Assembly (NCBI GenBank): GCA_051362555.1 | Contig: CM120640.1 | Coordinates: 55,778,788 to 55,842,787 of the forward strand | DNA length: 64,000 nt | Direction: 5' to 3' | DNA from: Lingula anatina | Taxonomy: Eukaryota; Animalia; Brachiopoda | Part shown: positions 19,749 to 61,740 of the stretch, in pieces | Layout: each line of letters starts with the position of its first letter | Position numbering within the stretch: the stretch's first letter is position 1 | Notes under the pieces: generated by a model | The model's database searches: none | The model's input: only the letters and a program-made list of their open reading frames with translations | Told to the model about the DNA's origin: nothing | Translations under genes and position numbers: made by a program

Positions 19749-19818
19749 CTGGTGGCAAGCGCTGGGATACAGACTTTAACACGCCAAGAGAAAAGCTCAA
19801 GAAATCAAGAAATTCAAA

Positions 19819-20946
19819 ATGCCTCCTAAAAAGGACAACAGATCTGACCAGGAGGATGTGAGAAACCTGGAGGAACAATTAGAAGAAGCCTGCAGAGCTC
19901 TTGAAGCTGAAAAAGAAAATTCTACTCACAGATTACAAAATGCTGTAGAAGAAGCAGAGGCAGAGAAAGAAAGATTAATTAGAAAAGCAAAAGAAAATGC
20001 GGACATCTTAGAGGCACGTGCTGAGGCTGCAGAACAGAGAGTCAGAGCCCTAGAGCGACAGAAAGAGACAGAAATAGAACACAGAGCCCAGAATGAACGC
20101 ATATCAGAAACAATAACCCCTACACTTACCCCATTTCACAGAATTAACGGCCGTAGTAACTTTGAAGTTCCTTTGCCCAGACAGACTCTCTTTAGTGGAA
20201 AAGAATCCTGGGAGGGTTTCATTGAACCATTCAAAGCACTAAGCCAGACTTGTGAATGGAGTGAGTCTGAGAAACTGTTTAGATTATGTAACAGTCTGCG
20301 TGGTGAGGCTGCTGATTTCGCCTTTGTGCAGTTGTCAGCAGAAGTGGTAAATTCCTACCCTCTGCTACAGAGGGCATTGCAAAACCGATTTCAAGAAAAG
20401 CGTACTACAAGCTCCTATCTATCAGAGCTAGAGAATAGAAAGCTTAGTTCAAGAGAGAAATTGCCAGAGTACATCTCCGATATTAGAAAGTTGGTGTTAA
20501 AAGGTTACCCCACGGCTGACTGCACCACCCGTGAGACCATTGCATTGCGCCATTTCATAAAAGGGTTGCCAGACCATCAAGCCGCCGTGGCAGTGGGCAT
20601 GAAAACGCCCAAAAATCTAGACGAAGCAAGGGAGGCCCTTGAAATGTACAACAGTCTAAGAGAAGAGGCAGTGAAAAGACCAAGTGTTAGGGCAGCAAAT
20701 CCTGAGGCTGTTGTAACAGAAAGTCAGCTACACCAGCTTGAAAAGAAGTTTGACAAGAAGTTAGATGAAATTAAAGACTTGATAATGAAAGAGAAAGCAA
20801 AAGACACGAAAAGTCCTCCACCACCCAAGTCAGAAAATTGGAAAAACAACATAGAGTGTTTCAAGTGCCATAGATATGGGCATCTGGCAAGAGAATGCAA
20901 GGCACCTGTGAAAGAGGCTCCGCATGTAAACAACCAGGGAAACTGA
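19819..20946 (+). CDS. gag: Gypsy Gag (N-terminal coiled coil, capsid-like region, CCHC zinc knuckle)
   Basis: 375-aa intact ORF with CFKCHRYGHLAREC knuckle; ends ...CAG GGA AAC TGA at a slippery site. Confidence 0.92.
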   Translation: MPPKKDNRSDQEDVRNLEEQLEEACRALEAEKENSTHRLQNAVEEAEAEKERLIRKAKENADILEARAEAAEQRVRALERQKETEIEHRAQNERISETITPTLTPFHRINGRSNFEVPLPRQTLFSGKESWEGFIEPFKALSQTCEWSESEKLFRLCNSLRGEAADFAFVQLSAEVVNSYPLLQRALQNRFQEKRTTSSYLSELENRKLSSREKLPEYISDIRKLVLKGYPTADCTTRETIALRHFIKGLPDHQAAVAVGMKTPKNLDEAREALEMYNSLREEAVKRPSVRAANPEAVVTESQLHQLEKKFDKKLDEIKDLIMKEKAKDTKSPPPPKSENWKNNIECFKCHRYGHLARECKAPVKEAPHVNNQGN

Positions 20947-23078
20947 GAAGGGGCATTCCAGCCGGCCAGAATGAACCCCTAAAAACACCTGTTGACAGTG
21001 ACATTGAAACCGTCAGTTGTAGAAATGCTAGTGTTTCTTGGCCAGTGAAGATTCAGGGCCAAGAAGTGAACTTTATTGTAGACACTGGTGCGTCAAAAAC
21101 AATTATATCTACCCACATTTATGAACGAATTCCCCATGATTTTAGACCTGAACTGAAAAAGACTCATAGAAAATTGCAGTTGCAGGTTGCGGACAGTAGA
21201 AACATTGAAATTGAAGGCCATGTAGAAATAAGTTTTCAGTCTGGCGAAGAAATGTTTGTATGGGACATGCTTGTAGCAAAAATAAAGGACGATGGTTTGT
21301 TAGGAATGGACTTCCTGTGCTATCATGATTTTTCACTGGGTGTGAACGGACTGAAACTTAATGGGAAGAGAGTGCCCTGTTTGGTTGAGAGGGAACCAAA
21401 GCATGCCTTTAGAGTGACAGTGACTAATGACGTTATTATTCCTGCAAACAGTGAGTTGATCATAGAAGGGACAGTTGATTTTAGCAAAATAAAATCAGGA
21501 TTGGGACTGGTAGAGGAAATTCCAGAGAAGTCAAGTGATTTTCTGATCGGACACGTGCTAGTTGATCCTTTCAGAAGAGACAATAAAATACCTTTGAGAC
21601 TCCTTAACCCCTCTAATGAAGACATTTCACTTTTGAAAGACACCTGCGTTGCTCATTTACATGAAGTAGACCATGTGATTGGTGATAAACTTGAAGATAG
21701 CCTTTCTGTGCCCATCTTACGAGCAGACTTAACCCTTCATAGCCCAGAATTGCCTGAGTGCCTGGCTGACCTCTATAAACAGTCAGGTGAGAATTTGACT
21801 GACTTTGAAAGATGTGAATTAAAGAAACTCCTGCAGAAGCACAGTGATGTTTTTGCCAAGTCTTCCAGTGACATGGGTCACACATCTGTCGTAAAGCATA
21901 AGATTGTCACTGGTGATGCAAGACCCATAAAACAGCAGCCCAGAAGACCCCCTAGAGCGTTTGCTGGGGAAGAAGAGAAAATAATTCAGGAACAGCTCCA
22001 AAATGGTGTTATTAGAGAGTCCACCTCACCTTGGTCAGCTCCACTAGTTTATGTCAAGAAAAAGGATGGAACAACAAGACCCTGTGTTGACTATAGACGC
22101 TTAAATGATGTAACAGTGAAAGATGCTTACCCTCTTCCTCGAATAAATGACTGTTTAGACTCTCTTGGTGGCTCAATTTTCTTTTCAATAGCTGATTGCC
22201 AGAGCGGGTATTATCAAATCGAGGTAGCAGAAGAAGATAAGCCAAAGACTGCATTTGTGACCAGAAATGGTTTATACGAATACAATGTTATGCCTTTTGG
22301 TCTTTCCAACTCTCCTTCAACCTTCGAACGGTGCATGGAACTGATTTTCCGTGGTTTGCAGTGGCAGACAGTGTTGATTTACCTTGATGACATTATTGTG
22401 TTTGGTAAATCGTTTGAAGAGCACTATAAGAGACTTGACGAGGTTTTTAATCGTCTTGGAAAAGCAGGGCTAAAACTGAAGCCAAGCAAATGCAGGTTGT
22501 TTCAAACTGAAGTTCAGTTTTTGGGACATGTAGTGACTCAAGATGGCGTTAAACCAGATCCTGAGAAGGTAGACTGTATAAAGAAATGGCCAGTTCCCAG
22601 GAATCTGACTGATGTACGTAGTTTTCTAGGACTGTGTTCGTATTATCGTAGATTTATTAGAGGATTTTCAACAAGAGCTGCTCCAATTAATCATCTGCTC
22701 CAGGCCGGCCAGGCGTTTACTTGGACAGACTCTTGTCAGACAGCATTTGAGGACCTCAAAAGTGCCCTTACAGGTAATGAGGTAATGGCGTATCCGAGAG
22801 ACGAAGGATTGTATATTCTCGACACTGATGCTTCAGCCACGGGCATTGGTGCCGTTTTATCTCAGTTACAGTGGTGTGAGAAGACCCAGAAAGAAATAGA
22901 GAAACCAGTCGCGTATGCAAGTAAGTCATTGACGAAAACTCAACGCCGTTACTGCGTGACTAGAAAAGAACTGCTTGCCGTTGTTACCTTTGTTCAACAA
23001 TTCAGACACCATTTATTGGGTAGACAGTTTTTGGTACGAAGCGATCACAGTGCCCTCCGATGGGTTATGTCCTTTTAG
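20895..23078 (+). CDS. pol: Gypsy Pol: aspartic protease, reverse transcriptase, RNase H (reached by -1 frameshift; ends at a premature TAG)
   Basis: FIVDTGAS protease motif; RT motifs CVDYRRLN, MPFGLSNSP, YLDDII; RNase H motifs LDTDAS, ELLAV, SDHSAL. Confidence 0.95.
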   Translation: MQGTCERGSACKQPGKLRRGIPAGQNEPLKTPVDSDIETVSCRNASVSWPVKIQGQEVNFIVDTGASKTIISTHIYERIPHDFRPELKKTHRKLQLQVADSRNIEIEGHVEISFQSGEEMFVWDMLVAKIKDDGLLGMDFLCYHDFSLGVNGLKLNGKRVPCLVEREPKHAFRVTVTNDVIIPANSELIIEGTVDFSKIKSGLGLVEEIPEKSSDFLIGHVLVDPFRRDNKIPLRLLNPSNEDISLLKDTCVAHLHEVDHVIGDKLEDSLSVPILRADLTLHSPELPECLADLYKQSGENLTDFERCELKKLLQKHSDVFAKSSSDMGHTSVVKHKIVTGDARPIKQQPRRPPRAFAGEEEKIIQEQLQNGVIRESTSPWSAPLVYVKKKDGTTRPCVDYRRLNDVTVKDAYPLPRINDCLDSLGGSIFFSIADCQSGYYQIEVAEEDKPKTAFVTRNGLYEYNVMPFGLSNSPSTFERCMELIFRGLQWQTVLIYLDDIIVFGKSFEEHYKRLDEVFNRLGKAGLKLKPSKCRLFQTEVQFLGHVVTQDGVKPDPEKVDCIKKWPVPRNLTDVRSFLGLCSYYRRFIRGFSTRAAPINHLLQAGQAFTWTDSCQTAFEDLKSALTGNEVMAYPRDEGLYILDTDASATGIGAVLSQLQWCEKTQKEIEKPVAYASKSLTKTQRRYCVTRKELLAVVTFVQQFRHHLLGRQFLVRSDHSALRWVMSF

Positions 23079-24269
23079 GAGCCCAATGATCAGATGGCCA
23101 GATGGCTGGAAGTGCTATCACAGTTTGATTTTAAAATAGAACACCGAGCAGGGGCCAGACACGGTAACGCAGATGCAATATCGAGATTTCCATGCGACCC
23201 AGATGAGTGTACATGCTATGATGGGGAGTCCATTTTAAGCAAATTGCCATGCGAGGGTTGCGTACAGTGTAAGAAGAAACATGAACAATGGTCCAGATAT
23301 CTGGAAGAAGAAGTCGTCCCTTTAGTAACCAGAAGAATGACAGAAAACCGAAAGAAAGAACCAAAATCAGACAATGGAGTCTGTGGCAGTGGTCAAGTAT
23401 CGGGAAACCAAGGAAAATGTCCAGTAAAACGTGTGTATACAGCAGCTTGTTCAGTTTTATTGACAGGCCTTTACACCCTACTGACATTGTTCTTTGTAAT
23501 CCTGAGCTGGGTGACCATGAAATTCAAGTGTATCTTTAAGGAAGTTAGAGCACTTTCTCTTCGAAGGATGAGAGTTTCCAAGAAAAGGGAAGTGCTGCCT
23601 AGAGAAAACTTGACATTCAAGGATCAAGATTTTTCTCATGGTGATGAAGATACAGATCTCAGTGAATCTGAGAGTGACAGAGATAGACTTCCAGCCGAGT
23701 GGCTGGGCAGTTACACTGTGAATGAATTGTTTAATTTGCAGTGTAAAGACCCTGAGTTGAAGACTGTGCTGGACTGGAAGGAACAGTCATCACAGAGACC
23801 AGAAAGAGATAAAGTGGCCGCAGAAAGTCCTGCAGTGCGACAGTTATGGTTGCTTTGGGACCAACTTGTGCTGCAGGAGGGCATTTTATATAAGAGATGG
23901 GAAACGTTAGATAAGACAGGTTCCTTTTTACAGATATTGGTTCCGAAAGAGATGAGGAATGAGGTGATGAAGGGCGTACATGACAAAGTCACGTCAGGTC
24001 ACCTCGGTGTCAAGAAAACAGTGAGCAAGTTGAAAAGACACTTCTACTGGTACAAGATGAAAGAAAGTGTGAGAGATTACATAAGAAGATGTGCTATTTG
24101 TGGTGGGAGAAAAAGACCACGGTCGAGACCTAAGGCTCCTTTGATAAGATATGCTGTAGGCGCTCCCATGGACAGAGTGGCAACAGACATCTTAGGACCT
24201 TTTCCAGTCAGTGAAAGAGGCAATAAATATATTCTTTTAGCAATGGACCAGTTTTCCAAATGGGTGGAG
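23079..24269 (+). pseudogene. pol: Continuation of Pol in the same frame after the TAG: end of RNase H, Cys-rich linker, hydrophobic insert, integrase HHCC and first catalytic Asp; truncated
   Basis: Same frame as 20895. Motifs ARWLEVL, HGNADAISR, H-x6-H...C-x2-C (HDKVTSGH...CAIC) and VATDILGP, then a break at KWVEC into duplicated flank sequence. Confidence 0.9.
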
Positions 24270-26907
24270 TGCACATTTTGCTTTTACCACCACAATTTTT
24301 GATACAGCATAACTCGTAAACAGTATGGAAATAAAAAAAAAACGGAGACCACGTACAGTGTTGGGCTTGACATGCTCTACAAAATGCAAAAAAGAATGGG
24401 TCTCTAACATTAACGGTTCCCGAATTAGAGACAGTTTTCAGTTTCGGTATCTTACGGCTGCTACTCCCGTGAAAATGCACTGATTGACCCCAAACTCACT
24501 GAGATGAAAGATGACCTGAAGGGTAACACCTTCCAATAATATTATAGGTTAGTTTCTGAACATCAGTGCAAAAAATTTTATTTCGTAAATAAAGGTCAAA
24601 GGTCAAATCCAAGGGTATATTTGAAATCTCCACATATGACTTTTGGTCAGCAGTCTGTAGAAATTTTTCCCATAATTCCTTCAGTAGGGTAGATAATTAG
24701 CATTTAATTTTGCCATTTTTGGACAAGGGTGCATTGCAATGAGGGCCACACCTAGACCCCAGCACTGACAAAGCCAAAATTTTACGTGGAACGAGTTGAG
24801 ATTATAGGTGACCTAAATCCAAGAGATGGGCACGCAGGCCCTTACCGTCTAGGAGGAGAAGCGGTAACGGTAACATGGCAGCGGAGCCGGCGGAACGATC
24901 CGGACGGGACTAAAACCATGTGTACCGCCAGCGCCTACGCTGGTGGTACAATAATATATTTCCACATTTAATTTGCAAAGTGAAAACAAAACTCATCCTC
25001 TTACCATACTCTCTTGATATTTATGAAAGCTATCCACAGATAAAATCAATCTTAGTTGTTACAATTTATGTGTCCTTACAGATCTATACAAACATGCAAT
25101 ACTAATTCAAATTATCAGATTACATGAACCGGTACATACTGCTCATACACGGATGCCATTAATTAACACCTTATCATAAATCAAGGTAAAAATTATATGC
25201 ACAAATAGTTCAAAATATTCCTTTACTTGAAAAAGTGTTAAATAGCCACTGTCAAAAATATATTGTGTATATTATTATCATATTGAAAATCATATTATTA
25301 TTATTTGAAAATGTTCATACTTGTACACATTACATCAGCTGCATACAGGCAGACACATGTACATGACTAAATTTCCTCTATGTAGCAGACTTCCATTGAG
25401 CCATTATATCAAGGCTAGCACAAATAATATCTGACCAACATGGGCAAAGTTGTAATGATTTAGGTTCAAGCTAGGGTATGGGTGAAAAAAAATAATGAAG
25501 TATGACTTTCAAAACCATATTGGTGTCCATCCAGGCATACGGCAATACAGAGTATTGTAACGCATACTGCTATCTTATGAGTCAGCGTAAAAACTTTTTA
25601 CATATGCCACAACTCAAGGTTTACATTGAAATATAACAAATTATCATAATGGCATCAAAAAGGCATCAAAAAGCCATCAAATGTTCCCCATATGCCTGGA
25701 GTCACAAAGAAATGCTTGCAAAGAGCATTTTCTGTAAAATGCTGTAGAAGATGAGGAATTACACTGTTGTGACTAGTTGTTATCAAAAACTAGCAAACAT
25801 TCGGAAGCTAAGGTCATTCAAATTAGTTAAATTTGAATGACCTTAGCTTCCGAATTCTAGCCAATGAACAATTTGTTATCAAAAGGTTTGTCAGGAAGTG
25901 ATAAATTAAAATTTGATTTTTGGTGACAAAAGTCCCATTCCCACACAGCATGGTAATTGGAATTCTAATGCGTGTATCTAAATTCATTTTTTTGGCTTCA
26001 CAGACCAAGAAACAAAATCACAATTCACCTTGCCAGATCTCACTGGCAACTCTATTGACGCTTGCTTGGGGAGTCACAGTATGTCCTGGTGAACAGGGGC
26101 ATTTGTTTCCAGTCTCTATACAAGTAACAATCATGCTTTTGCTTTTGCTTTCAATAATCACGATATTGCATATGCATCTATCAAACTATGGTGTAAAATT
26201 ATTCAAATGTTTGATGATACATTAATGAAACAAGCATACATACATGAGATAAATAGTTACAAGTTGCTGACACCTTATGTTCCACCCACAGTATTGTAAC
26301 GATTTTTCATAGCCTTAAAATTCATGGTAAAATTGCTGCAGTAAGCTGTAGCCTTTTGTTTACATTCTTGTGTGTGTTGAACTTTGAACCTTAAGTTGGA
26401 ATGGCTTGTAAGTGGTATCAGTTTACTAAAGAGGTGATTGTGGTGTCCAGTATAGGGGTTGGCGGTCAACCATTCAAGGCCGTCCACTTTTCCTCTGCCT
26501 GCCAGTCAAAGTAGCAGTGAACCATTCAAGGCCGTCCACTTTTGAAACGTATAAATACAGCTGCTCTACGCAGTGTTGGTCAGTTAGAGTTCAGTTAGAG
26601 TTACTGTAGAGTATAGTGGCAGTACTCAGTGAGAGTATAGTGTCAGACTTAGTTTCACAACTTAGTTTGAATCAGTTTCGCAATATAGTTCCAGTTAGTT
26701 TATTGTAGCTGAGTTGCAGTTGTTTAAATTAGAAGTACAGCAGTACAGCAAGAATAGAGACAGTGTTTAGTAAAAGATACAGAAACATGTACATTTGTGT
26801 TGAAAGTTATTCGTAGAAATAAAGTTTACAAAACAGAGACCTTGTTTTGTTGGTGGCAGCGAAGTAAGAGAACCGTACACTGGTGGCAGAAAAAGAAGAC
26901 CTCTACA
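24270..26907 (+). repeat. Segmental duplication copy 2 (HINE end, unique flank, LTR)
   Basis: Matches 17111-19748; junction ...tgggtggag|tgcacattttgc. Confidence 0.95.
26295..26907 (+). mobile_element. Gypsy LTR in solo-LTR configuration (GTAT on both sides)
   Basis: GTAT at 26291-26294 and 26908-26911; 613 bp; one visible SNP versus the first LTR. Confidence 0.9.
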
Positions 26908-29719: not shown

Positions 29720-32700
29720 TTATTTGTTAAATATAATGCCAGGCACCAAATTGGATAGGACAGAACACAACATAATTATTTTATCAGCACTTGATATAGC
29801 TGCTTCCTCACTCTCATCTTTTATCGGCCATTCCACGAAAAGGGGTACAATTCCAAAACAAGAAATGCAGTGATATGAACTTTGCAAAACTGGAAAACTT
29901 TTTATATTATTTTGATGAAGAGGTATTCAGAGAGTAGTAGAAGAATTTTAACCCACACCATTACTGTATTTAAAGAAATATGCACGTGTAAACATGGTAC
30001 AGTATTTTTTCGTTACGGAGGTTAGGTAACATCTAAATTAGCTTATATTTCAATCATGCCAAAGGTCACAGGCTCCATATTTGATTCAATTATTAAGATT
30101 TTGTATGTATTCAAAATATTATTGCCCATTTAAGATTTCTCTTCAATTATAGAAAATGCGGTGCAAACACATTGATAATAAGTGGCTCGTTTTCTATAAA
30201 TACAAAGCCTGAGATATTCCAATTTAAATATTTTATTAATCATTGGGGACAGACTTTCTTTTTTATCATTCTATTTGTTTATGAACAAAGTGCAATCAAT
30301 CTATTATGATATGAGCATTGATCAATGAGCACACACATATCCAATGTTCAAATGAAAAATGAGTAATTTCGTAACGGAGGTTAGGTCATTAATAGCCATC
30401 ATATTTGTTTTGATATTTCTTAGCTTAAAGTAGACTTTAAGAGGCTGAATTCGGAATTTGTAGTATTACAGATACGACAAACGTTACATAATAACAAAAC
30501 ATTAAACCTACGTGTACATGATCGCAGCTATAGGCAGTAAAAAACAACACAATACCCGAGAAAGTTGATGTATACAATCAAGTAGGCCGACAATAGACAC
30601 GTGTTTGCGGATAATTGTCCATTTAAAGTTATTGGAAGCATCTAGAAGATGTTAAAAACTATTATGTGCTACTGAAACAGTAAAATAGGGCCTAATAACC
30701 CCGCAGTTCTACCTGATAAATACAAGCGTTGCTTCAATGCTTAATATATTTCGCCATATGTCTCCCGCGAAAATAATGTCTGCTACATGTACGCTAGTAC
30801 TGATGTCAGCTAGTACCATTTTTATTGCTAAGACAGTCCTGAAAACTCCTCATTTCGCTTAAAATCAGAATGATAAGTTCAAACAGGCATCGTCAAGTGA
30901 CAAATGGAAATCAATTTGAAAAAACAAATCACGATTTACCCCCGATTTTATAGCAAACTCGAGTAAAAACTTAAATGGTTAGCTTACCTAGATAGAATTA
31001 TCAGCTATATATGTATATTTTATATCTATATTAATACGGGGTAATGTCTTTAACAGCAAGCCGTATGAATGCATACTACATCAGAACATAGAAGTAGAAC
31101 TACTTCTATGATCAGAACTAACTCACAAAACCACAGAAATAACGTATTGAAGTATTAACAGTCATTTTTATAACAATTAACTTATTTCCGTAATGGAGGT
31201 TAGCATAACGGATGCAAGGTGACACGCACTCTTTTTCAATTTTTATCCTCGGGATAACTTTGCATAACTATTGAATGAATTTTTTAGGAAGAAGTTGGTC
31301 CTTGCTTAACAAAAATGTTGTTTTTAACTTTCTAAAACAACATTTTCTTCAAATTTGGTCCGTTACTGAGGTTAGGCTCTTAAATGCGACACCCCGACTT
31401 TTGTGAGTTAACATTCTCTATGATGGAACGCAACATTCAAAATTAACAAATAGCACTGTTTTATTAAACTTCATGTATTAAGAGTTTGAAAAATGCACAG
31501 GAAGGCCATTTAAGAGCATTTTCTTTTATTCTTACACTGAGTTAAAAAAGCGTTACGGAGGTTAGGGGTTACTGAGCGACATTGATTAAACTATCACAGT
31601 GACGTAACTAACCAACAAATTCGACAGAGAACACCATGTATGATAAAAAGAAACATGAATTCAAATTAGTTGAGCACTAAAAACACTAAAATACGGGAAA
31701 ATATAAACTTTTTCTTGTGGCAAATCAGCTATAATACCGAAGCGACACGTCGAAATCGTGCTTTTTGCGGCATATAGACCCCCGGGATTCCCGTCAAAGC
31801 AAGTGGTACTATATCAATTGTTGTTTTTTAAGTAGAACACATCGGGTCCTGCTAAAAAAGGCTAAAAAAAGCTAAATTGCAGATGCTTTTACTACTGAAA
31901 ATAAGCTGCGACAGGTATTATTCAGAATTGTACCCTTTTTCGTGGAATGGCTGTTATGCTCTGTACACACTGAAGCAGTACTGTGACCTTTAACATAGTA
32001 AACCTAATTTTTAACAAACCAATCACTCTTTCTACACGCATCCTAACTGAGGAAACACTTCTTGGCTTTTCCACTTCTCTAGCACATAATTGCTTTTTCT
32101 CTTTAGTAAATGCTTGCGTTTCAAGGTGAGAACTACACTTTGATGCAAAGTCATCTTGTAACAGATGATATTTGCTGCTAAATTCTGAATTGCGTACAAT
32201 TTTAACTTTGGAAGCTCTGTCGGCCCAAGCTTTGGAAATAAAGTTAACAGAACCACATAGATTGCAAGAAATAAAAAATCCCATTGCAGTGTGTTTTTTG
32301 TCATTGCTATAAACCTGGGCACGAGCTAGGAGGTTTTTGGGGGATTCAATCAAGACTTCAAAACAGTCTATAAGTGTGGGAATTTCCTTTTGAACACTGA
32401 AAATTCTATCCCTATCACTTCATTTTATCATGAAACCTAGCTTATTATACATAAAATCCATCCACCTCCAGAAAATGTCAATGACTTTTGATTGTGGTAT
32501 ACCCTTCACATGTGCCAGAAACCCTAAGGTTTAATTATGACGCAACTTGAACTTCAAAAGTGTCAAAAACAGCTGTTCTTTTAAGGGTAGACTTGAACCT
32601 ATCAATCCTGGCTGTAAAAACACACTAATTAAAGTCAAAATCTGCATGAACATTGTCCATGAAAGTCCAGTCATCAACTGGCAAGCACTGTCATTACCTT

Positions 32701-41769: not shown

Positions 41770-41820
41770 CATTCCGACCAATGAGAGACCGTAATACGGG
41801 CTCCGCCCCCACGCGTGTAA
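41770..41820. promoter_or_regulatory. Promoter elements (CCAAT box, GC box) between ABCB9-like and a divergent spliced transcript
   Basis: CCAAT at 41778, ggctccgcccc near 41800, local CpG enrichment, about 200 bp upstream of the ABCB9-like ATG. Confidence 0.5.
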
Positions 41821-41989: not shown

Positions 41990-44900
41990 ATGTCTTTCAA
42001 CAGCAAGAAAGCCAAATGTCTCCTATTTATAACAGTTATTTTTCCTGTGGTTGACGTGTGTGTAACCACTGTGCTTTACTCACATGGCACTGGTTTTAAA
42101 GAACACTTCACCCAAGGGTTTTATGCCTACTCTGTGTTTACATCATTATTTGATGTTTGGTCACTCAGCATTTTAAGAGCAACATTGTTACTTGGACTGG
42201 TAATAGGGGTAATGTGCAATCCAAAGAAAGGGGTACAGCGAGCCAAAAAAGTAGTGCGTGTAATTGCAGTTATTACTGTTATCTTATGGGTCTGTCAAAT
42301 TATAAAATTGTTGCTATTTTCGGATGCTGTTTCTGACTTGAGGAAACCTTGGTTCTGGGCATTGTTCTGTTGGACACTTATTGCATCCGTTCTCATGTTT
42401 GTTCTGTGGTGGCAAGTGGCAGAACTGAAAGTTATATCAAAGAAGAAGTATCATGGGATCAATTCCACTATTGGTGAAAGAGAAAGTCTTATAAATGCCA
42501 ATACTACCCTTAGTAGCGGAAGTGAAGATAGTGAGGATGAAGAGAAAGAGCACCATAATGGTAATCGACATAAGAAAAAGAAGAAAAAAGCCTCAAGAAC
42601 TACAAGCATTTTCCGCTTACTGAAGCTGTCCAAAGATGACTGGCCTTTTATTTTGGCTGGCTTCTTTTTCCTGCTATGTGCAGCTGGAGGTAGGTTTTAT
42701 AATCAGCAGGTGATGGTGCATTTTGACATGCCATATGTTATACCCAAACTAGTCCACACCACACCACAAGTGTATTCCCCCAATGGCCATATTAACATAG
42801 CAGCAATTTAAGTACAAGCAATTTAATTCTTGTTTTCTGTGAAGATGGGTCTAAAGGGAGCATACACATCGAGAAGAGCCGAGGTCTAGTAAGGCCACGA
42901 CCTAAATATGGTGGACCTACATGAAAGGAAGACCGCCAATCCTGTTAATCCTTCCCACACGTCGTCCCTGCAGTAGAGAGACCATTACAGGATTGGCAGT
43001 CTTCCTTTCATGTAGGTCTGTCATATTTAGGTTGTGGCCTTAGTAGACCTCTTCTCTTCTCGATGTGAATGCACCCTTAAACTTGGTACAACTCGCCTGA
43101 GAATGCCATCTGATTACCTCAAGCTCACCAATGTAATGGCAGATGTTTTGTAAGGGATAACTATTGAGTGGTTAGATTTGCCTACCCTCTTCCAGGGTGA
43201 CAGATTTATTTTTCACAGATATTCACAGATATGTGTCTAGATAAATAGACAGTCATTTTGGTCTGATTCAGCCAAAAATGCCCACAATAATAACTGCGGG
43301 CCTGGTAGAGGGTAAGATTTCCCCTTTTTTGTGGGATAATTGTTTTCAGATGGTCAACTTCCATTGATGTAACCAAGTTGAGTTGAACTACCCTCTTCCA
43401 GGGCGATAGATTGATTTTTCACGGATATTCACAGATATGTCTCTAGATAAATAGACAGTCATTTGGCTATGGATTTTTCCATCTTTCCCTATATAATCTG
43501 CCACCCTGGTGGGGGGTAGAGCTGAACCAGCTTCACTGGAAACTAGCCTTGAATTTGCCCTCTGCTCTAATCAACCATGATTTATATGGGCAACACTACA
43601 GAGGAGGGCTCTACAGAGACATGATGCTTTGTTTCGCACTAAGTGTGGTGTAATTTCAAGATTAAAGATTTTAGTAAATATCATTGTTTAATTGACATTG
43701 ACTCTGCTTAATATGTTACTTATTTTGACAATTTCCTGTTACTACTCCAGCTGAAGTATTCCTACCATACTACACTGGCCAGGTGATAGATGGTATTGTC
43801 ATTGAGCAGTCATATGAAAAGTTCACCAATGCCATCATTATAATGTCAGCAATATCACTAACAGCGTAAGTTAACAATGCATTTGATAGAGACACAGTTA
43901 TTTGACACAGTGACCTTCCTTGTGAAGTACAAGTTTTTTCAAAGTTAATGTAGCATTTCCTCATATTGCAGACTTAAAAAAATATTATAAACAGAGCTAC
44001 TTGATGTGATATAGACTAAACTTCAGTTTGGAGCAAGATATCAGATTGGAAGATGTTTTTATTAATGTCATATAAAAATAATTAATTCCACTTCTTGTGC
44101 TGTTCCAGTGGTTTTGCAGCAGGGTCGAGAGGATGTCTGCTTTTACTTGCCATGAACAGACTTGGGCTCAGGGTGCGAAACTTGCTGTTTGGTGCCATCA
44201 TGAAGCAGGAGACTGGCTTCTTTGATAAGATACAAACCGGTAAGGTTACACATTTGCCCTCCTGCCTCCCCCCTCCCCCCTCCCCCAGGCCCCAACTACA
44301 GTTATTCAGCCATTGATATCTATTGCAGTTGCACAAGTTGGCAAGGAATGGTTAAATGTAAAAAAAAAAAAAACGGTGAAAAAGCTATTTACAGCTTTTT
44401 GTAACTGAACTGTTTACAGAATTTAATTTCAAGTTGGCATACATATTCAGTTGTTTCTTGCTTTTTTAAAAACAGTGAACCCAAGTTTGGTTTATTTGTT
44501 GTGCATGATTTGTTAAATTTCAGCATGATGTCAGCTTGATTAAAAGAAATACCAATGTTGTTCTTTTATCATTTATTCCAGGTGAAATCACCTCCAGATT
44601 AACATCTGATGCCACAACCATGAGTGAGTCAGTAGGATTGAACATCAACATATTCCTTAGAAGTCTAGTGAAGGCTAGTAAGTTTATGTGTCTCATGTGA
44701 GGTTATGTGAAATATGAATTTCACCATGTTCATGATCAGTCATTGAACTGAGATACTAAATACAGTGTGACCAAAGATGAAAATGTCTTGAAGGTTTGGG
44801 TCAGTTTATAAATTTTGTATTTATAAGTGATAATAAATGCAGGCATGATCCAATTTATAGGAATTTTACTGCAGAGTGGCCATCGTGGAACAATTCCTCC

Positions 44901-46905
44901 ATTGGTGTGAACCAGTCCCCCTTACCCCCCTCATACAGTGGCTTGGGATCTGTCCAATTGAAAGGCTCCTGAAGGGGACAGTTTATCTTCCACCATTCCT
45001 TTGTCTTGGGGTCATCTGCAATGGCTTGCCAGTCTGCCTCAAAGTTTTTTCCTAATGAATTAAATTGAGCACCAAATGTATGAGTGTTTTTGAAGTTATG
45101 TTTAATCTTGCACCCTGTAGTATGAGATACATGTAAGACTGTGTGGCCCTGAAAATCTTTCATTAAATTTGTACAAAGGCAATCATTTTCTTGAAAAAAA
45201 AAGACTTAGATTTATGTCAGAAATGGTGAATATTGAAAAGATTGAAGATTGATATTTGTTAGTAGAATGTGGCAGGTTATACATACCAATATACTCCAGG
45301 TAAGCAAAGAGGAGACCAGTCTCCTTGTGATAATAAATGGAGTAATTTCGAATATTGCTCTTAGTCAGCCTGTCCAGTACCTGAGGACATAATACATAGC
45401 ATGTTAACTCATCCAGCAAGAACACCCATCTTTTTAATCTAGTTTTTCTTTACGTCTCCCTCTGTATCTGCATTTCTGCGTGACATGTATGTCAATTAGA
45501 AGAGAAGCTTGATAACTACATGTACATGTATAAAGTCAAAGCATTAAATTGACCAGTTTGTATATTTTGGAGAAAAAAGTAATAATGTGTTGTAAAAATG
45601 TTTGTGATGGGCAATTCCATGTTCACTGAATCGTATGCAGAAAAATTTACTTTCAAAGTATTTGGTTAATAATATATTGAGTAACCATCTGTTTTTAAGT
45701 GGAAATTAATGCATGCATGAATAATGTAAAGAGACAGGCACTGAGGCAGACATTCACAGCTTATATAAAATATACATGCTAATGAGTAAAGGCGTCAAGG
45801 CCTGGGCTTTAACTGTTGTTATTAACCCAGTTTTTAGAGCACTTCTGATTCATGGTAAATGCACTACAGGTAAAGACAAGGCAGTCTTCAAGTCTTAAAG
45901 CAATTCAGTATATTCTGTTGTGTTAAGAGCTATTGTCCTCATCACAAAAGCATCTTACCTCAGGCCAGACTTTGGCATGAAGTTCCTTATATTTGGCATA
46001 ACACTCAGGCTTCAGCTTGATAACTGAGCCATATCTTTTAGAAGGAGTGGTGTCACTGGTAGTAGCCATGTTGCAGTGGGCGGTTTGTGACCTATAAAAC
46101 TTGCATTCTCTATTTACTACTTTCTTATCTAGCCCCAGAGGTTCAATAGTGCAAACTGTTTCTAGGTCTGTTATTTGCATAGATGATCTATTTTGAGGTC
46201 ACTATACATATACAAGTAACCTGAAAATGCAAAACAATTTGCATCCCATAACCTTTCAAAGCTGTGATTTGTTTTACTCATTTTGACTTATTATATGTCT
46301 GTCTTTTAAAGAGAACCGTTTATTACCCCCTTGGGAGTATTTATATGCTTATTTTTTAATGTGTTGTTAGTCATTTATTGATAAAATTACACAGCCTATT
46401 TGTGCCTGTAAATATAGAAATTGTGGCAGGTGAATAAATACAAAGTAATATATTTTTTTCTCTCATTTCCAGTTGGAACTTGCGTTTTTATGTTTAAGTT
46501 GTCTTGGCAGCTTACCCTAGTGACGTTCATTGGTCTTCCTATCATCATTGGTTTCTCCACCCTTTATGGCGAATACTATGAGGTAAAAACTTAGATGTTA
46601 TATACTGATAACACTGGATATTTTAATTTATCATTTTACAGGTACTGTCTTGGCTTTGCATAAATCAAACACCAAGATAGATATACATCATAAAAAGTCT
46701 TCCACATTTCTCATTTTGTTTGAAGTCAGAAAATCTATTTTACATTATATATATATATCTAATGGGGAATAATTTCCAAAATTCTACAGTAGTACTATAT
46801 TACAACCTTGATAGAGGCCTGTCTGAATGACTCTTAAGTTTCATTTAGGATTGCTTGGGTCATATGAATGGCTAAAATACAGATCAATTTTGTAAAATTG
46901 GCCTG

Positions 46906-46967
<62 letters not shown>

Positions 46968-49900
46968 TTTTGTTTGTTTGTTTGTTTGTTTGTTTTCAGA
47001 ATATGTTGCCCCAAAAATCTAAATGCAGGATGCTGGTAGTTGTTAATTTTGTCTTTTACATGTACCGGGGTATGTGAATTTAGATTATTGGGCCAACCTA
47101 GGCTGCATTCACATGAAAAATCTATTTTCTAAAAATCTATATGCGGTATCTTGGGATCACGGTCTGTGCCCTGAATACCCCATGGCGTAATTACAGGCAG
47201 CGCGAACCAGTTACTTCCAAAGCTGTAATTATTTCTTGCCGCTGCCAGTAATTACGCCGCGGGGTATTCAGGGCACAGACCGTGATCACAAGATACCACA
47301 AATAGAATTTTAGAAAATACATTTTTCCTGTGAACGCAGCCCTATTGTGTACAGTCATTTCATGAGTTTATATTCCTTTTGGTTACTCTCATAAGAATGT
47401 CCCATGGGTCAGGAATTGTTCAGTATTCAAATCATATAATGCAACCCTTTTTTCTCTTTTTTCAGAAACTGTCAAAGGAAATCCAGGACACTCTAGCCAT
47501 TGCCAACAACGTGGCTGAAGAGACATGTTCATCAATGAAGACAGTTCGCAGCTTTGCAAACGAGACTGCAGAGGTCCAAAGATACAAAGACAAACTTCAG
47601 GATTCCTACAAGTTGTACAAAAAGGAGGCTCTGGCTTATGGTGCTTTTATGTGGTGCAATGAGGTAGGATGAATGTTATGCAATTGGTACTTGATATACA
47701 TATATCCACCTCATGAAGCGATTGATCTGCACATGATGAAGTAAAACATTAATGGGGGCTCTGAATGATTTAAGCATCAATAAGTGTTTTAAGCTCGACT
47801 TGATATATATATATTTTTATTAAGAATTTCATCTTAGTTAACTTTATTGATAAATCACATTTGCATGTTAATCTCAGTAATGAATACCCAAAATAGTGAC
47901 ACATACACATACATATCTATCTCTAATTATTCCCTTCTAATTTTCAGGTCTTTGAACTGTCTTTGACTGTAGCTACCCTTTACTATGGTGGTCATCTTGT
48001 CCTGAATAAAACCATGACTGGTGGCAACTTGGTGTCCTTCATCTTGTATCAGCTGGAGCTTGGTGACTGCTTTGAGGTAAGACACCATTGTACGTTTTTA
48101 TAATGGCTGATTTATAACATCTTCGATAAATGACGGGAGGGGAAAGGGGCAATTAATAATCAGATTTTTATTAAACATTGTAAAACACATGAAAAGCACA
48201 AATACACTTCCTTGCCCACTCAAGAACAGACACATGTTAGACTTCTATTTTCAATTGCTTTGTTTCTCAATATATTTGTACTTGCATTGACTGATTCTAC
48301 CACAGGAAATGGGTGAAGTATTCACTGGTCTAATGCAGGCAGTTGGTGCATCAGAGAAAGTGATGGAATACATGTATCGTGAACCTAAAATCCAGAATGA
48401 TGGCTCACATATTCCAGGCCAACTTGATGGTCATATTGAGTTTTGTCAGGCCACATTTACATATCCTGCTAGACCAGATGAGCCTGCATTGAAGGTAAAT
48501 TAATTGATACATGTACAAGTTTTAATCTGTTCTCTTTTTCAGTCTATAGGAAATGTTTTCACATCTTTGATGCAAGCTGTGGGTGCTTCTCATAAAGTAT
48601 TTGAGTATATGGACCGCAAACCTGAAGTTATAAATGATGGTACATGTGCACCTGCCCACTTGAATGGGCTCCTGCAGTTCAGACAAGTTCATTTCAGTTA
48701 TCCAACCAGGCCAGATGAAAAAGCATTGAAGGTAATTGCAATTGGAGTGTGCTGCCAGCTTCCAAGTTTTCAGCTTCATGTGCAGCAGTATGGATGTTGC
48801 TTCACGTGCAGTATGGATTTGTGTTTTTATTTATTGTTTTATTGTTATACTTCAGTTTCTTTTTTGCTGCTTTATTTTCCTGTATCTATATTTTATTATA
48901 GTTGTAGCTTTGAATTGTATATGTCTGTCACCAAGGAATGATTCAGTGAAAGAATTAATTAATCAGTGATGCCTGCATGTTCACTGTTTTGCTGTTTAAG
49001 GGTTGCTGATTGCCTAAATCTTGTTTGAATTAATAAGGCTTGTATTATAGAATTATAAATGTTAGTACTGATTACATTTGAAGAAATAATGTCTCATTCC
49101 ATATGATTGCTGTTTTAAAATTAGTTCCTCCATATTGTTTAATCAATGTTTTGTGTATGTTGCTCAATGCAATCTGTTTCTCACAGCAGATCACCAGAAT
49201 AGAATTACCTTTGCGCAGCTTGTATGATGCTTGTTGCTGGTAGCGGTTATTAAAAATTTATGTTGTTTGCAGATGTTATCCAGGCAAAAGGCTTATAGTC
49301 AGTAATTTTGCTTGGTTTGGAATCATCAGTTGCTTGATTTACTTCTACTTAATTGCTAAACAGAAAAAATATAGTTTAAAATCAGTTTGTATCTACATTT
49401 CAAACACAGTTACACCTTATTACTTAAAAAAATTAAGTACCTGATTTCATGAACTTCATCTCTTTTATTACACACAGGGCACCATTTTTAGGGATATGAG
49501 AAATGAAAACTGTTTGATTTTAGTGAGTGATAACCTTAAATGTCAAATTTATGCAAAAAAAATGTGATATTATGTTAATTTTTTCCCTTTTCAAAGAAGT
49601 ATGTTAGACTTACAATATTACCATTCCTCTATGTAGGATGTTTCATTTCAAGTCAAACCAGGAGAAGTTGTGGCTCTTGTAGGACCAAGTGGTGGTGGCA
49701 AAAGTTCCTGTGTAAACTTATTGGAGCATTTCTATGAGACACAGTCTGGTGAAGTACTTTTGGATGGCATTCCAGTCAAACAGTATGATCACAAGTATCT
49801 GCACAGAAAGGTCAGTAGATAAAGAAGTATGCTTTTAATCACTTGCACCACACCAAATGCCATTGTAGTTGAAGATGGACCAGTTAAATTTTATTAATTT

Positions 49901-51433
49901 GTTCATTTAAGGGCCTTTCTGCTTTAGTTCAATGAAGGTCACTCTTATTGCTTTGGGCCAATTTAGGCCAGTGGGTATAAAGGATTACTGGGCAGACTGA
50001 TAAGGTGAAGTGGATTTGGAAAGATGTTGGCTTAAACTGTGCCTGGAATAAATATCATCAGCTGGATGCCCAACATATTACTAGTAGATATTTCATTCTG
50101 AAAATTTTAAGATGTCAAAGATTATCATGGCATTAACAGCAAAGAAATACCTGGTGCTGTCCTTAGACATTTTAAAGTGAAATATGTTGAATATGTGTAA
50201 ATCATTCTCCATGTATTTTTTTTAATAATTGCTTAATTTTCCATCTTAACAATAGATAGCTCTAGTTGGACAGGAACCAGTGCTGTATGCTAGGTCTATC
50301 AGAGAGAACATTGCTTATGGAATGGAAGAGGAGTGCAGTATAGAAGAAGTACAACTTGCTGCCAAGAAAGCCAATGCACATCAGTTTATATTAGAGATGA
50401 AAGATGGATATGAAACTCAAGCAGGAGAGAAAGGACTCCAGTTGTCAGGTAAAAGGGTTGTTTGTTTGTGTGTTTGTTTGTTTGGTCTGTTAGGTGTTGG
50501 AACACCTGTGTTTTCAGTTACAATTCTTTCATACAGAAGAATTGGCATTTTGTTATTATTTCCTTTATCATAATTTCTTTTGGCATATGTGTATATTGCA
50601 TGTGCATGAAGCAATTATGTACAACTGCAAATTACTTGAAGATATGCCCTTAATATGTTTCTAGAACTATTTTAGAAACTTTATCTTTATTAATTATGAA
50701 ATATTATAAACCATGCATAAGATTAATTGTGACCTTTTATGTATGAAAATACAGAATATTTCTTCCAGCCTTTTAAATATTTTATCACAATTATGTAACC
50801 TATTTTTCTTTATATTTCTAGGTGGTCAGAAACAAAGAATAGCCATAGCTAGAGCATTGCTACGTGATCCCAAAGTTCTGCTGTTGGATGAAGCCACCAG
50901 TGCATTGGATGCTGAATCTGAACATGTGGTAAGACTTCATGAATCAACTGAATTCTTTTCTTTTTGATGATTAATTAAAATGTTTTTAGTTAGTTAGTCA
51001 TGTGATATTAACACCTCATTTTGTTGGTTTGAAGGATAATTTTTTAGATAATTATTAAGAAATTTTGGTCGATAGCTAATGATAACTGTCTTGTCATTTT
51101 TCTCTGTAGGTCCAACAAGCCATTTACAACAACCTTCACAATCATACTGTGATCATAGTGGCCCATCGCCTCAGCACAGTGGAGAAAGCTAACCGTATAG
51201 TGGTCATAGACAAGGGCACTGTGGTGGAAGAAGGCACACACAAGGACTTGTTAGCTGCAGGTGGACTGTATACTAAACTGGTGCAGAGACAGATAATGGG
51301 ATTCGATGATTTTGCAAATGAAAACAAGGCTAAGTCTGACACTGTCAAGATTAACAAGAAACGTAGATCATCATCCAGTAGCAGTGACAGTTCTAGCAGT
51401 GCATCAGTTGGATCCCCATTACGGAAACTCTGA
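41990..51433 (+). CDS. ABCB9: ABCB9/TAP-like (TAPL) half ABC peptide transporter, ~821 aa, 12 coding exons
   Basis: GT-AG exons 41990-42689, 43751-43865, 44109-44239, 44582-44677, 46473-46582, 47466-47663, 47948-48076, [48306-48494 or 48543-48731], 49637-49810, 50256-50448, 50822-50928, 51110-51433 join in frame (2466 nt). N-terminal TMD0, [14 protein letters not shown], Walker [10 protein letters not shown]-loop QEP, signature LSGGQKQR, Walker [13 protein letters not shown]-loop AHRLSTV. Confidence 0.93.
42855..43077. mobile_element. PIF/Harbinger-type fold-back MITE in ABCB9 intron 1, TAA TSD
   Basis: ~95-bp inverted arms (agggagcatacacatcgagaagag... / ...ctcttctcgatgtgaatgcaccct); taa on both sides. 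Confidence 0.85.
43180..43520. repeat. Partially duplicated MITE-like element
   Basis: ~80-bp direct repeat (ctaccctcttccaggg...gacagtcattt at 43182 and 43388) and an inverted end aatctgccaccctggtggggggtag. Confidence 0.6.
44855..46069 (-). CDS. rhaM: L-rhamnose mutarotase (RhaM/YiiL, DUF718) family protein, 133 aa, 3 exons, nested antisense in ABCB9 coding intron 4
   Basis: Exons 46069-45959, 45380-45287, 45051-44855 with GT-AG junctions give 402 nt in frame: [99 protein letters not shown]...[19 protein letters not shown]. Family motifs Y-x3-H-x2-VWPE, NYSI, LFAY, WW and MEExFH are present. Confidence 0.9.
46908..46995. repeat. (TG)n followed by (TTTG)n microsatellite
   Basis: Seen directly. 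Confidence 0.95.
47101..47341. mobile_element. PIF/Harbinger-type fold-back MITE in ABCB9 intron 5, CTA TSD
   Basis: ggctgcattcaca...tgtgaacgcagcc termini, ~100-bp inverted arms, cta on both sides. Confidence 0.85.
48306..48494 (+). CDS. ABCB9: ABCB9-like exon 8a (alternative)
   Basis: cacag|...|gtaaat, 189 nt, phase 0-0, [19 protein letters not shown]...[11 protein letters not shown]. Confidence 0.88.
48543..48731 (+). CDS. ABCB9: ABCB9-like exon 8b (alternative paralog of 8a)
   Basis: tttttcag|...|gtaatt, 189 nt, phase 0-0, [19 protein letters not shown]...[11 protein letters not shown]. Confidence 0.88.
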
Positions 51434-60681: not shown

Positions 60682-61740
60682 CAGGGGGGTGACATAAGAA
60701 TATTGCACCACCTGTGTGAATAGTGCGCTTTGTGACATGGGGAACCCATTCGCAAAAAGTGATTTGTGGTTTGTTGTTCGCGTAACCAGTAATGAATTTT
60801 TATCCGTGTGCACTGTGAGGGGTAGCAACGAGGGTGCAAGCCCCCTCTGACTGACAAGTTCCTGCCATGGAGAAGCTACGGAAGCTCACAAACGAAGAAA
60901 GAAAATAAATTGTTCCTCTGGGGGATATAAATGTCTCTCAGATAGCCGCCAGATACGGTGTTTCTGGTCAGACTGTATATAGGGTGATGCCCATCAGTCA
61001 CCACAAAGTGGCCGCCCGAAGAAGACCAGTGCCAGAGACACCAGGTGTCTTTTATGCTGTCAAGGCTTAAGAGATTTGAATCTTGCAGCGAATCAGCTTT
61101 TCAGTGGTCCCGTAATTTGAAGGTTGAGGTTAGCAAAATAACTGTTTAAAGAAAGTTCCATGCTTCAGGAATTCACACCAGGGTTGCCAGGCGAAAACTG
61201 CTCATCACATTGGTAAACAAACGAAGAAGAGTGACATGGGGTGAAAGAACCATTGCATGGACCCTAGATCCATTTATGGCGCCATTTTGTGTTGCTGAGC
61301 AATTCATTTTCCAATATGATAACGCCACATTCCACAGGCTCAGGTCTGTACAAGAGTGGTTTTACCATTATGGCATCAACAGGGTGGACTGGCTTGCCCA
61401 ATCACCAGTCATAAACCCCAATGAAAACCTGTGGAATCAGAATGGAAATACAAACGTACATGTAGCCCACAGAATATTGCTGAAGATTACTGAACCGTTA
61501 TCAATCTCCAGAAGGATAGTGGTCATATTGAGATCACTTGGCTGTCTTACAAAATACATGTATGAATACTGAGATATATATGTAAGGTTATATAAGGACA
61601 ACACATTGGACTGTGAACCTGAAGTAAAGATAGTAACTTGACATTGCCAGTTTTCAATAAAATACTATTTGAAAAACTAAACAAACCCAGCTGTTTTTCA
61701 TCTTCAAGCAAAATGGTGCAAAACTTTTGTCACCCCTCTG
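60682..61740 (+). mobile_element. Tc1/mariner element relic with internally deleted, decayed transposase
   Basis: TA on both sides; imperfect TIRs caggggggtgacataag...tgcacca / tggtgca...ttttgtcacccctctg. Remnants FQYDNATFH and WLAQSPVINPNENLW correspond to the Tc1 motifs QQDNAPxH and WPxxSPDLNPIENLW. Confidence 0.88.

Follow-up and report, generated by a model that had tools for sequence, protein, structure and literature searches.

A FucM-branch mutarotase gene, probably for L-fucose, lies antisense within an ABCB9 intron of the brachiopod Lingula anatina

The window described here, a stretch of 64,000 nt from Lingula anatina, carries an ABCB9/TAPL-like gene on its plus strand and, within that gene on the minus strand, a gene for a sugar mutarotase. 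The features of the locus are:

41990..51433, plus strand: ABCB9/TAPL-like host gene of 12 coding exons (821 aa), with exons 8a and 8b as alternatives
44582..44677, plus strand: coding exon 4 of ABCB9, which the mutarotase 3' UTR probably overlaps
44678..46472, plus strand: ABCB9 intron 4, 1795 nt, GT..AG, 4 reads in run X7; contains the mutarotase CDS
45959..46069, minus strand: mutarotase coding exon 1, 111 nt, residues 1-37 with Y27 and H31; phase-0 donor, junction reads
45381..45958, minus strand: mutarotase intron 1, 578 nt, after residue 37, phase 0; junction in RNA reads
45287..45380, minus strand: mutarotase coding exon 2, 94 nt, residues 38-69 with Y50
45052..45286, minus strand: mutarotase intron 2, 235 nt, inside G69, phase 1; junction in RNA reads
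44855..45051, minus strand: mutarotase coding exon 3, 197 nt with stop, residues 69-133 with W88, W89, Q96, W115 and F116
44546..44854, minus strand: mutarotase 3' UTR, about 300 nt, probably reaching over ABCB9 exon 4 in antisense; its lower end is placed only approximately, by the last 91-nt bin that has reads
44572..44577, minus strand: likely polyadenylation signal AATAAA, the first on this strand past the stop, just outside host exon 4

The original prediction was of a complete, three-exon ORF of 133 aa with canonical splice sites, and this was confirmed: the minus-strand exons have GT/AG ends and join into an open frame, the window translation of which is 100% identical to XP_013401176.1 of L. 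anatina. Exon 3 also encodes an insert typical of eukaryotic homologs and the C-terminal tail. A second Lingula copy (paralog) sits on a different contig. The host isoforms agree with the L. anatina RefSeq ABCB9 in 818 of 821 positions. The existence of the mutarotase gene was already known from RefSeq and a published tree (PMC13390645, Fig. S6).

Transcription was followed in four of nine listed RNA runs (X1, X4, X5 and X7), using 6-25% of each. Spliced reads crossed intron 1 in X4 (6), X7 (22) and X5 (2) and intron 2 in X7 (17) and X5 (2), with none across intron 2 in X4 and none across either in X1; in the stranded runs both junctions are opposite in strand to ABCB9, as predicted. The host joint 44677>46473 was seen in X7 and had no reads in X1, X4 or X5. 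Host and mutarotase are both expressed in X4, X5 and X7; in X1, where there were only 11 reads in all, host reads were present and none lay over mutarotase exons 1 and 3. The further claim that the gene is antisense within ABCB9 intron 4 holds for the coding sequence, which is wholly inside the intron, but probably not for the 3' UTR, which appears to reach over exon 4 (2-3 stranded reads, one run). These are minus-strand-RNA reads of the stranded run X4 over 44673 (3) and 44604 (2), both within host exon 4; X5 gave no such reads in this exon. Read depth is zero at 44455-44545 in all four runs, and, judging from this end of read depth, the AATAAA at 44572-44577 is likely to be the polyadenylation signal in use. 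The mutarotase is likely to be both nested in ABCB9 and exon-overlapping, rather than a wholly intronic transcript.

Nine of the ten coding variants are synonymous, an excess with P 5e-6 against all single changes and 3e-4 against transitions only. The mutarotase is a real, spliced and expressed gene of the host genome under codon-level constraint. Contamination, which the original prediction had also argued against, and a pseudogene are rejected on the spliceosomal introns, the junction reads and the synonymous variants.

Assignment to the rhaM family was also borne out. Over its full length the protein reaches 100.5 bits with Pfam PF05336 (gathering cut-off 23.4), covering model positions 1-104 of 105, and each exon matches separately and in colinear order (positions 1-26, 27-55 and 58-104). 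No other Pfam family was found at E up to 0.01, and there was no match to PF05025 (RbsD_FucU). The predicted structure (pLDDT 91.5) has a RhaM-type alpha+beta fold, and its four best structural matches are all RhaM/DUF718 members. Mutarotases of this family are homodimers with an active site of Tyr, His, Tyr and Trp-Trp; as originally noted, Y27, H31, Y50, W88 and W89 correspond in the alignment to Y18, H22, Y41, W76 and W77 of E. coli RhaM. The protein is an intact, intron-containing member of the RhaM/DUF718 (PF05336) family. The rhaM clusters of the ESM Atlas are mostly fungal, which says nothing on the range of the family.

The name L-rhamnose mutarotase, in contrast, was not supported. 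Because the five active-site residues occur in both branches, RhaM as well as FucM, they do not tell which sugar is used. Against the RhaM equivalog model TIGR02625 the score was 60.9 bits, under the cut-off of 99.6 (scored on P0001, which is 1 of 133 residues off the window protein), whereas two bacterial RhaM controls scored 121-123 bits. The best solved relative by both sequence and fold is the L-fucose mutarotase FucM of Acidovorax avenae (7BYU, 7BYW): in the PDB sequence search it matched at E 2.6e-27, compared with 1.8e-10 to 8.1e-9 for RhaM entries (YiiL, 1.8e-10), and Foldseek with the model gave E 3.9e-11 and 46% identity for 7BYU, against 1.7e-7 and 25% for 1X8D. Similarly, VIA gave Z 17.7, rmsd 1.7 and 108 aligned residues for 7BYU, and Z 14.1, rmsd 1.8 and 104 aligned for YiiL. 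Identity to E. coli RhaM is 33% over just 79 residues; to FucM it is 46-47% over the full fold. Proteins of the RhaM/YiiL/RhaU group (TIGR02625; 1X8D, 2QLW, 6HHN) have the same Pfam family, fold (Z 13.3-14.1) and active-site equivalents, but are 25-29% identical to the Lingula protein in structural alignments. The window protein is thus on the FucM branch, nearer FucM than RhaM by sequence and fold.

Lingula and FucM have in common the Tyr/His/Tyr/Trp-Trp core and a C-terminal P-x-Q ... W ... MEE-x-FH segment. The Lingula protein departs from FucM in an insert of 7 residues ahead of the last strand, a short tail at the C-terminus, F116 where FucM has Trp, two introns and the lack of an operon context. 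Q96 aligns with the FucM glutamine (Q in 119 of 123 aligned rows), and F116, next to W115, aligns with a FucM Trp, the Lingula protein being the sole F among the 123 rows and all others W; E. coli RhaM is without equivalents of Q96 and W115-116. Gln87 and Trp99 of FucM reportedly recognise fucose, as Watanabe is said to have found in 2020; we take Q96 to be the counterpart of this Gln87 and F116 to occupy the position of Trp99. To our knowledge, the FucM branch has only one characterised member. Judged from these comparisons, the sugar is likely to be L-fucose rather than L-rhamnose.

Bacterial gene neighbourhoods give a mixed picture of the branch. They were read around seven plasmid matches, chosen one per genus from the best 18 among 242 records, and around the matches found in six of 301 genomes of one phylum; one ORF was kept per overlap, so that some genes are missed. 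A search of genome contigs with a single protein gave one locus. Among named neighbours, L-fuconate dehydratase recurs most often: it is annotated no more than 8 kb away in four of the seven close plasmid matches (L004, L005, L007 and L045), and rha isomerase, kinase or aldolase genes occur in none of the seven; around annotated RhaM controls, rha genes adjoin in four of four. However, a URO-D-fold/MtaA-like methyltransferase gene adjoins all four close Bacteroidota matches, no fucosidase was among the ORFs scanned near these four, and L003 adjoins genes for altronate dehydratase and mannonate oxidoreductase. A uniform association of the FucM branch with fucose does not hold.

On balance, we lean towards a FucM-branch L-fucose mutarotase of Lingula under purifying selection, with both introns derived from the cnidarian-bilaterian ancestor and placed within ABCB9 by chance. 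Such an enzyme would interconvert alpha- and beta-L-fucose, the H31/Y27 pair opening the sugar ring as in YiiL and FucM. No hydrophobic leader is seen by inspection, and the protein would be cytosolic. Fucokinase is a route of fucose salvage; fucose freed by lysosomal alpha-fucosidases could be converted by the mutarotase to beta-L-fucose for fucose dehydrogenase or for fucokinase salvage. PMC13406643 describes fucose dehydrogenase as beta-specific, release of fucose by lysosomes and fucose as a normal animal sugar. The Lingula enzyme would do the job of the unrelated FUOM in mammals. FUOM and E. coli FucU have the same predicted reaction, L-fucose anomer exchange, and the same predicted place in salvage or breakdown (PMC13406643), but belong to a different Pfam family, PF05025 (PMC10481521), and would be analogs rather than homologs of the Lingula mutarotase.

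The same gene and history could instead serve another L-fucose-like sugar as main substrate (L-galactose, D-arabinose or, from algal food, an O-methylated deoxyhexose), or have relaxed specificity. We regard this as unlikely, although it would accommodate the F116 found in 1 of 123 rows at an otherwise invariant W, the insert of 7-10 residues beside this site in eukaryote-type proteins and the methyltransferase-like neighbours of the Bacteroidota matches. Furthermore, L003 and L045 adjoin altronate dehydratase and aldo/keto reductase genes, which we take to be an L-galactose-type route. However, the W is kept in the Lingula paralog and in coral proteins, the one branch member that is both solved and named is a mutarotase of L-fucose, fuconate dehydratase adjoins four of the seven plasmid loci, more than any other named neighbour, and fucose is normal in animals.

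It is distinctly unlikely that the enzyme is a true L-rhamnose mutarotase handling rhamnose of digested bacteria or algae. The Pfam name, the five retained residues, the coral homologs called L-rhamnose mutarotase-like in databases and one AU test that did not reject a RhaM branch joined beside Lingula (below) would suit such a role, but database names are only family-level, and the TIGR02625 score, the short alignment to E. coli RhaM and the absence of rha genes near the seven plasmid matches all argue against it. Among the plasmid matches, a close group (72-120 bits) is also set apart from rhaM-named genes, which mostly score 50-56 bits, with one such record at 92. Animal proteins that databases call 'L-rhamnose mutarotase' probably carry the wrong name; they belong to the FucM branch.

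As to origin, the original prediction had offered either an ancient, patchily retained gene or a domesticated transfer, to be examined by a phylogeny with bacterial, fungal and metazoan homologs. Homologs were found in cnidarians, Owenia, tunicates, the fungus Gonapodya, Diplonema and protists. The careful tree has 44 rows (68 of 112 left out by choice) and 110 of 299 columns kept, and a quick tree was also made; the bacteria in the rows were picked by similarity to the query, and FucM, Ciona and Phallusia are absent. The window protein groups with those of cnidarians, Owenia, Gonapodya and Diplonema in a clade of eukaryote type (99/96). An insert is common to all eukaryote-type proteins and missing from the bacterial rows, and the clade persists with most insert columns dropped. 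Six RhaM rows form their own clade (100/100), which excludes the window protein and is separated by a branch of about 2.8 changes per column; in the trees the window protein and the fuconate-cluster proteins L004-L007 lie on one side. Two coral-type genomic loci, L014 and L020, share both introns with Lingula, in residue as well as in phase, and L014 clusters with named corals and an anemone (97/94). From this intron identity and the eukaryote-type clade, it is likely that the gene descends from the cnidarian-bilaterian ancestor and was lost many times, and the first of the two predicted origins fits best. A recent bacterial transfer special to the Lingula lineage was not supported, given the breadth of the homologs, the 99/96 clade and the introns common to the coral-type loci.

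Still less probable than a rhamnose enzyme is repeated horizontal transfer from bacteria or protists, separately to cnidarians, lophotrochozoans and tunicates, with the Lingula copy late. The distribution is very patchy, and PMC13390645 (section 12) leaves both loss and transfer standing. In the best tree the named animals do not form a single clade, and five protist-type rows join Owenia (97/91). Moreover, AU tests of three alternative topologies gave p 0.071, 0.060 and 0.243, the last for Lingula outside the other eukaryote-type rows; the p of 0.060 is for the RhaM branch beside Lingula, a test that only moves this long branch. The intron pattern also differs in L021 and L022, which have a single intron after residue 90, as does a member of the Phallusia cluster. 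Against this, two of two introns agree in site and phase between Lingula and the coral-type loci, which would need two parallel gains or animal-to-animal DNA transfer, and the eukaryote-only insert and single eukaryote-type clade point the same way. The tunicate copy may have a separate history, given its intron after residue 90, and transfer may still account for the tunicate and protist copies.

In its available part, PMC13390645 describes Ciona KY21.Chr2.1425 as a 'rhamnose/fucose mutarotase' with cnidarian, Owenia and Lingula homologs, the same animal group as the window protein; Fig. S6 includes XP_013401176, other Lingula accessions, Owenia, cnidarians and Diplonema. This text names the Ciona group rhamnose mutarotase, leaves loss versus transfer undecided and makes no use of intron positions, the FucM branch or ABCB9 nesting. 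Intron sites are a simple test of that choice, and favour ancient inheritance for the Lingula-cnidarian pair. More tentatively, early animals may have had a second, FUOM-unrelated L-fucose mutarotase from a eukaryote-specific subfamily of the FucM branch, with two introns in the cnidarian-bilaterian ancestor, that survived in anthozoans, brachiopods and oweniids, perhaps also in tunicates, and was elsewhere lost or displaced by FUOM. If so, a published possible horizontal transfer would become the differential loss, long ago, of one enzyme of an analogous pair. Membership of the FucM branch would mean that some invertebrates have a fucose mutarotase with no relation to FUOM. A literature search, mostly outside subscription papers, returned no publication on Lingula, transfer and mutarotase together, none joining ABCB9 and the mutarotase, and no invertebrate functional study among the matches listed.

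Finally, the link to ABCB9 function that the original prediction had raised was not supported. Co-regulation of the two genes for lysosomal food handling, or regulation of ABCB9 exon 4 by the antisense UTR, is the least probable reading: the UTR overlap, the joint expression in three runs and the lysosomal release of fucose would fit it, but tblastn gave no ABCB9 match in 20 loci around eukaryote-type homologs (a weak test, the loci being only 1-10 kb long), the Lingula paralog is on another contig, X1 has host reads without mutarotase exon 1 or 3 reads (among its 11), and the database name of ABCB9 is that of an oligopeptide transporter, for peptides and not sugars. The placement of the L-fucose mutarotase that we favour in intron 4 would instead be chance, and the nesting a curiosity unless it is conserved. 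The 3' UTR overlap with exon 4 could allow sense-antisense pairing. As both old introns are retained, the gene would have moved as DNA and not as a retrocopy.

The mutarotase is a genuine, expressed gene that databases already list, and the intact three-exon gene of the original prediction is borne out by its exons, Pfam rhaM matches, a RefSeq record and RNA reads.

Mutarotase coding exons (GT/AG intron ends) and the first AATAAA past the stop
46069-45959, minus strand: coding exon 1
45380-45287, minus strand: coding exon 2
45051-44855, minus strand: coding exon 3
44572-44577, minus strand: AATAAA, from the sequence

Joined, the three minus-strand exons encode 133 aa; each separately matches Pfam rhaM, in model order, and the protein is 100% identical to P0122, RefSeq XP_013401176.1 of the brachiopod Lingula anatina. 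The gene itself is already known: the available text of PMC13390645 describes the mutarotase family from tunicates, cnidarians and a small number of spiralians, with XP_013401176 among the entries of Fig. S6, and does not choose between loss and transfer. Our literature search returned nothing on Lingula, transfer and mutarotase together, nor on ABCB9 with mutarotase. As far as such searches reach, three things are new: the assignment to the FucM branch, the evidence from introns and the overlap of the UTR with the host.

Four of the nine listed RNA runs were aligned, once each, and read numbers are small. Intron 1 was spanned by 22 junction reads in run X7, six in X4, two in X5 and none in X1, and intron 2 by 17, none, two and none, respectively. 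In the stranded runs X4 and X5 the mutarotase exons are read in the direction opposite to the ABCB9 exons, and four X7 reads show the ABCB9 intron that holds the mutarotase removed by splicing. Nine of 10 read variants within the CDS were synonymous (P 5e-6 when compared with every single change, 3e-4 when compared with transitions alone). The CDS is nested in the ABCB9 intron, as predicted, but the transcript is probably not wholly intronic, its 3' UTR likely extending over exon 4 of the host. Minus-strand-RNA reads from X4, in small numbers, carry the transcript beyond the host donor site into ABCB9 exon 4 (three at 44673, two at 44604); X5 gave none at these two positions. Read depth is 0 at 44455-44545.

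A second Lingula protein, P0001, equals the window protein at 132/133 residues and lies on a 92,969-base contig of the RefSeq assembly together with an ABCB9 copy, P0311 (555/556 residues equal over the aligned part); the pair is probably the other allele, or an allelic duplicate, of the window genes. The paralog P0002 (74% identical, third contig) keeps W where the window protein has F116. Its long hydrophobic N-terminal stretch suggests that it is possibly a membrane-anchored or luminal mutarotase.

The five residues cited in the original prediction do align with E. coli RhaM, but all branches of the family have them. Tests that do discriminate point away from RhaM. On P0001 the RhaM model TIGR02625 scored 60.9 bits, short of its 99.6-bit cut-off, and a PDB sequence search placed the Acidovorax avenae L-fucose mutarotase, FucM, at E 2.6e-27 and RhaM entries at 1.8e-10 or weaker. 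The predicted structure (pLDDT 91.5) has FucM (7BYU) as its closest fold match (Foldseek E 3.9e-11); in structural alignment with VIA, the model gave Z 17.7 and rmsd 1.7 over 108 residues with 7BYU, and Z 14.1 with YiiL. In a 44-row tree, a branch with 100/100 support and about 2.8 changes per column sets off the six RhaM rows. The rhamnose label is not supported, and a FucM-type (L-fucose) mutarotase is more likely than a RhaM-type one. Family, fold as modelled and conserved core are demonstrated.

FucM is said, in the work of Watanabe in 2020, to be active only on L-fucose, with Gln87 and Trp99 recognising that sugar. In the PDB search alignment these fall on Q96 and F116 of the window protein; Q occupies the first position in 119/123 aligned relatives and W the second in 122/123 aligned rows, the window protein being the sole exception. 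The substrate is probably, if far from securely, L-fucose; a related sugar, or relaxed use, is rather unlikely.

L-rhamnose is improbable as substrate. None of seven close plasmid hits (one per genus, chosen from the best 18 of 242 records) has a rha isomerase, kinase or aldolase beside it; rha genes were present in 4/4 annotated RhaM control loci, two further controls being unannotated. An annotated L-fuconate dehydratase lies within 8 kb in four of the seven plasmid loci (L004, L005, L007, L045), two (L006, L046) have a similar cluster with the dehydratase not in view, and the neighbours in one (L003) are an altronate dehydratase and a mannonate oxidoreductase. In a one-phylum (Bacteroidota) sample, 6/301 genomes matched. 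The two weak matches are true RhaM beside rhamnosidase pieces; in all four close loci (L001, L040, L041, L042) a URO-D-fold, MtaA/CmuA-like protein adjoins the FucM-like gene, a hint that O-methylated sugars may be what the pathway handles. Of these four, one also has a FucP-like permease nearby, scoring under the cut-off, and one an enolase-family enzyme. Judged by these neighbourhoods, the FucM branch leans to fucose, though not uniformly.

The Lingula enzyme is presumably cytosolic and would use H31 and Y27 to open the ring of its sugar, as the equivalent pair does in YiiL and FucM. In mammals, as outlined in the available part of PMC13406643, lysosomal fucosidases release fucose, FUOM balances its anomers, and it is the beta form that fucose dehydrogenase uses; in bacteria with a non-phosphorylating route, FucM acts at the same first step (PMC11199699, available part). 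By analogy, the Lingula enzyme would occupy the mutarotation step held elsewhere by FUOM or FucM. FUOM is a member of another family, PF05025 (PMC10481521, available part), so the Lingula enzyme would be its analog, alike in predicted step.

As to origin, the original prediction allowed either an ancient, patchily retained gene or a transfer; an ancient gene is more likely than a new transfer, and gene structure is the strongest evidence. Corals and anemones, Owenia, Phallusia, Diplonema and the fungus Gonapodya all have named homologs, and marine eukaryote transcripts supply others. Eukaryote-type homologs have in common an insert near residues 102-113, which bacterial rows lack, and form a clade (99/96 in the 44-row tree; 96 SH-aLRT in a 112-row quick tree). 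Among 20 loci from a metagenome scan, the coral-type genomic loci L014 and L020 hold the whole gene and carry both Lingula introns, each matching in residue and in phase: the first, of phase 0, follows residue 37, and the second, of phase 1, lies inside G69. L014 clusters with named cnidarians (97/94). Descent from the cnidarian-bilaterian ancestor would predict such a match. Less in keeping with a simple history, L021 and L022 have a single intron after residue 90, a site found also in the multi-intron, non-animal-type locus L031, and protist-type rows group with Owenia (97/91). AU test p values were 0.071 for animals as one clade, 0.060 for Lingula joined with RhaM and 0.243 for the other eukaryote-type rows without Lingula. 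Several predicted proteins (P0158, P0202, P0108) end at the after-residue-90 site, one of them in the Phallusia cluster. P0004 of Owenia fusiformis is predicted to have a tandem pair of mutarotase domains, of which the first is truncated; it is a fusion or else the product of two gene models joined together.

The host gene, with 821 aa encoded by 12 exons, finds its best PDB match in ABCB9, and its two forms equal RefSeq ABCB9 isoforms at 818/821 residues. The proposed functional link with the mutarotase finds no support. ABCB9 is an oligopeptide transporter, paralog P0002 lies on a separate contig, and ABCB9 protein had no match in 20/20 loci around eukaryote-type homologs, though these loci are short (1-10 kb); in Lingula, host exons flank the mutarotase CDS at distances of no more than about 180 and 400 bases. 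We found no tie beyond position and UTR overlap, and the position carries no sign of a functional link. Because both old introns are kept, the mutarotase gene would have to have moved as DNA.

ABCB9 exon 8 is a tandem duplicate, its copies 63 codons each, 37/63 residues identical and 48 nt apart, encoding the linker between membrane domain and ATP-binding domain; so short a gap suggests mutually exclusive splicing.

48306-48494, plus strand: ABCB9 exon 8a (RefSeq isoform X2)
48543-48731, plus strand: ABCB9 exon 8b (RefSeq isoform X1)

Just upstream of ABCB9, a CCAAT and a GC-rich box seen by eye (41780-41810) are possibly its promoter. Mobile-element sequences were also found in the window.

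19780-24302, plus strand: LTR-retrotransposon-like element (gag-like frame with zinc knuckle, protease, reverse transcriptase, RNase H)
31922-32419, minus strand, and 61150-61572, plus strand: transposase fragments by domain matches (DDE_Tnp_4; weak Tc3-type HTH)

The LTR-retrotransposon-like element has direct repeats from 17111 and 24270, 7159 bases apart and identical over the 300 nt compared.
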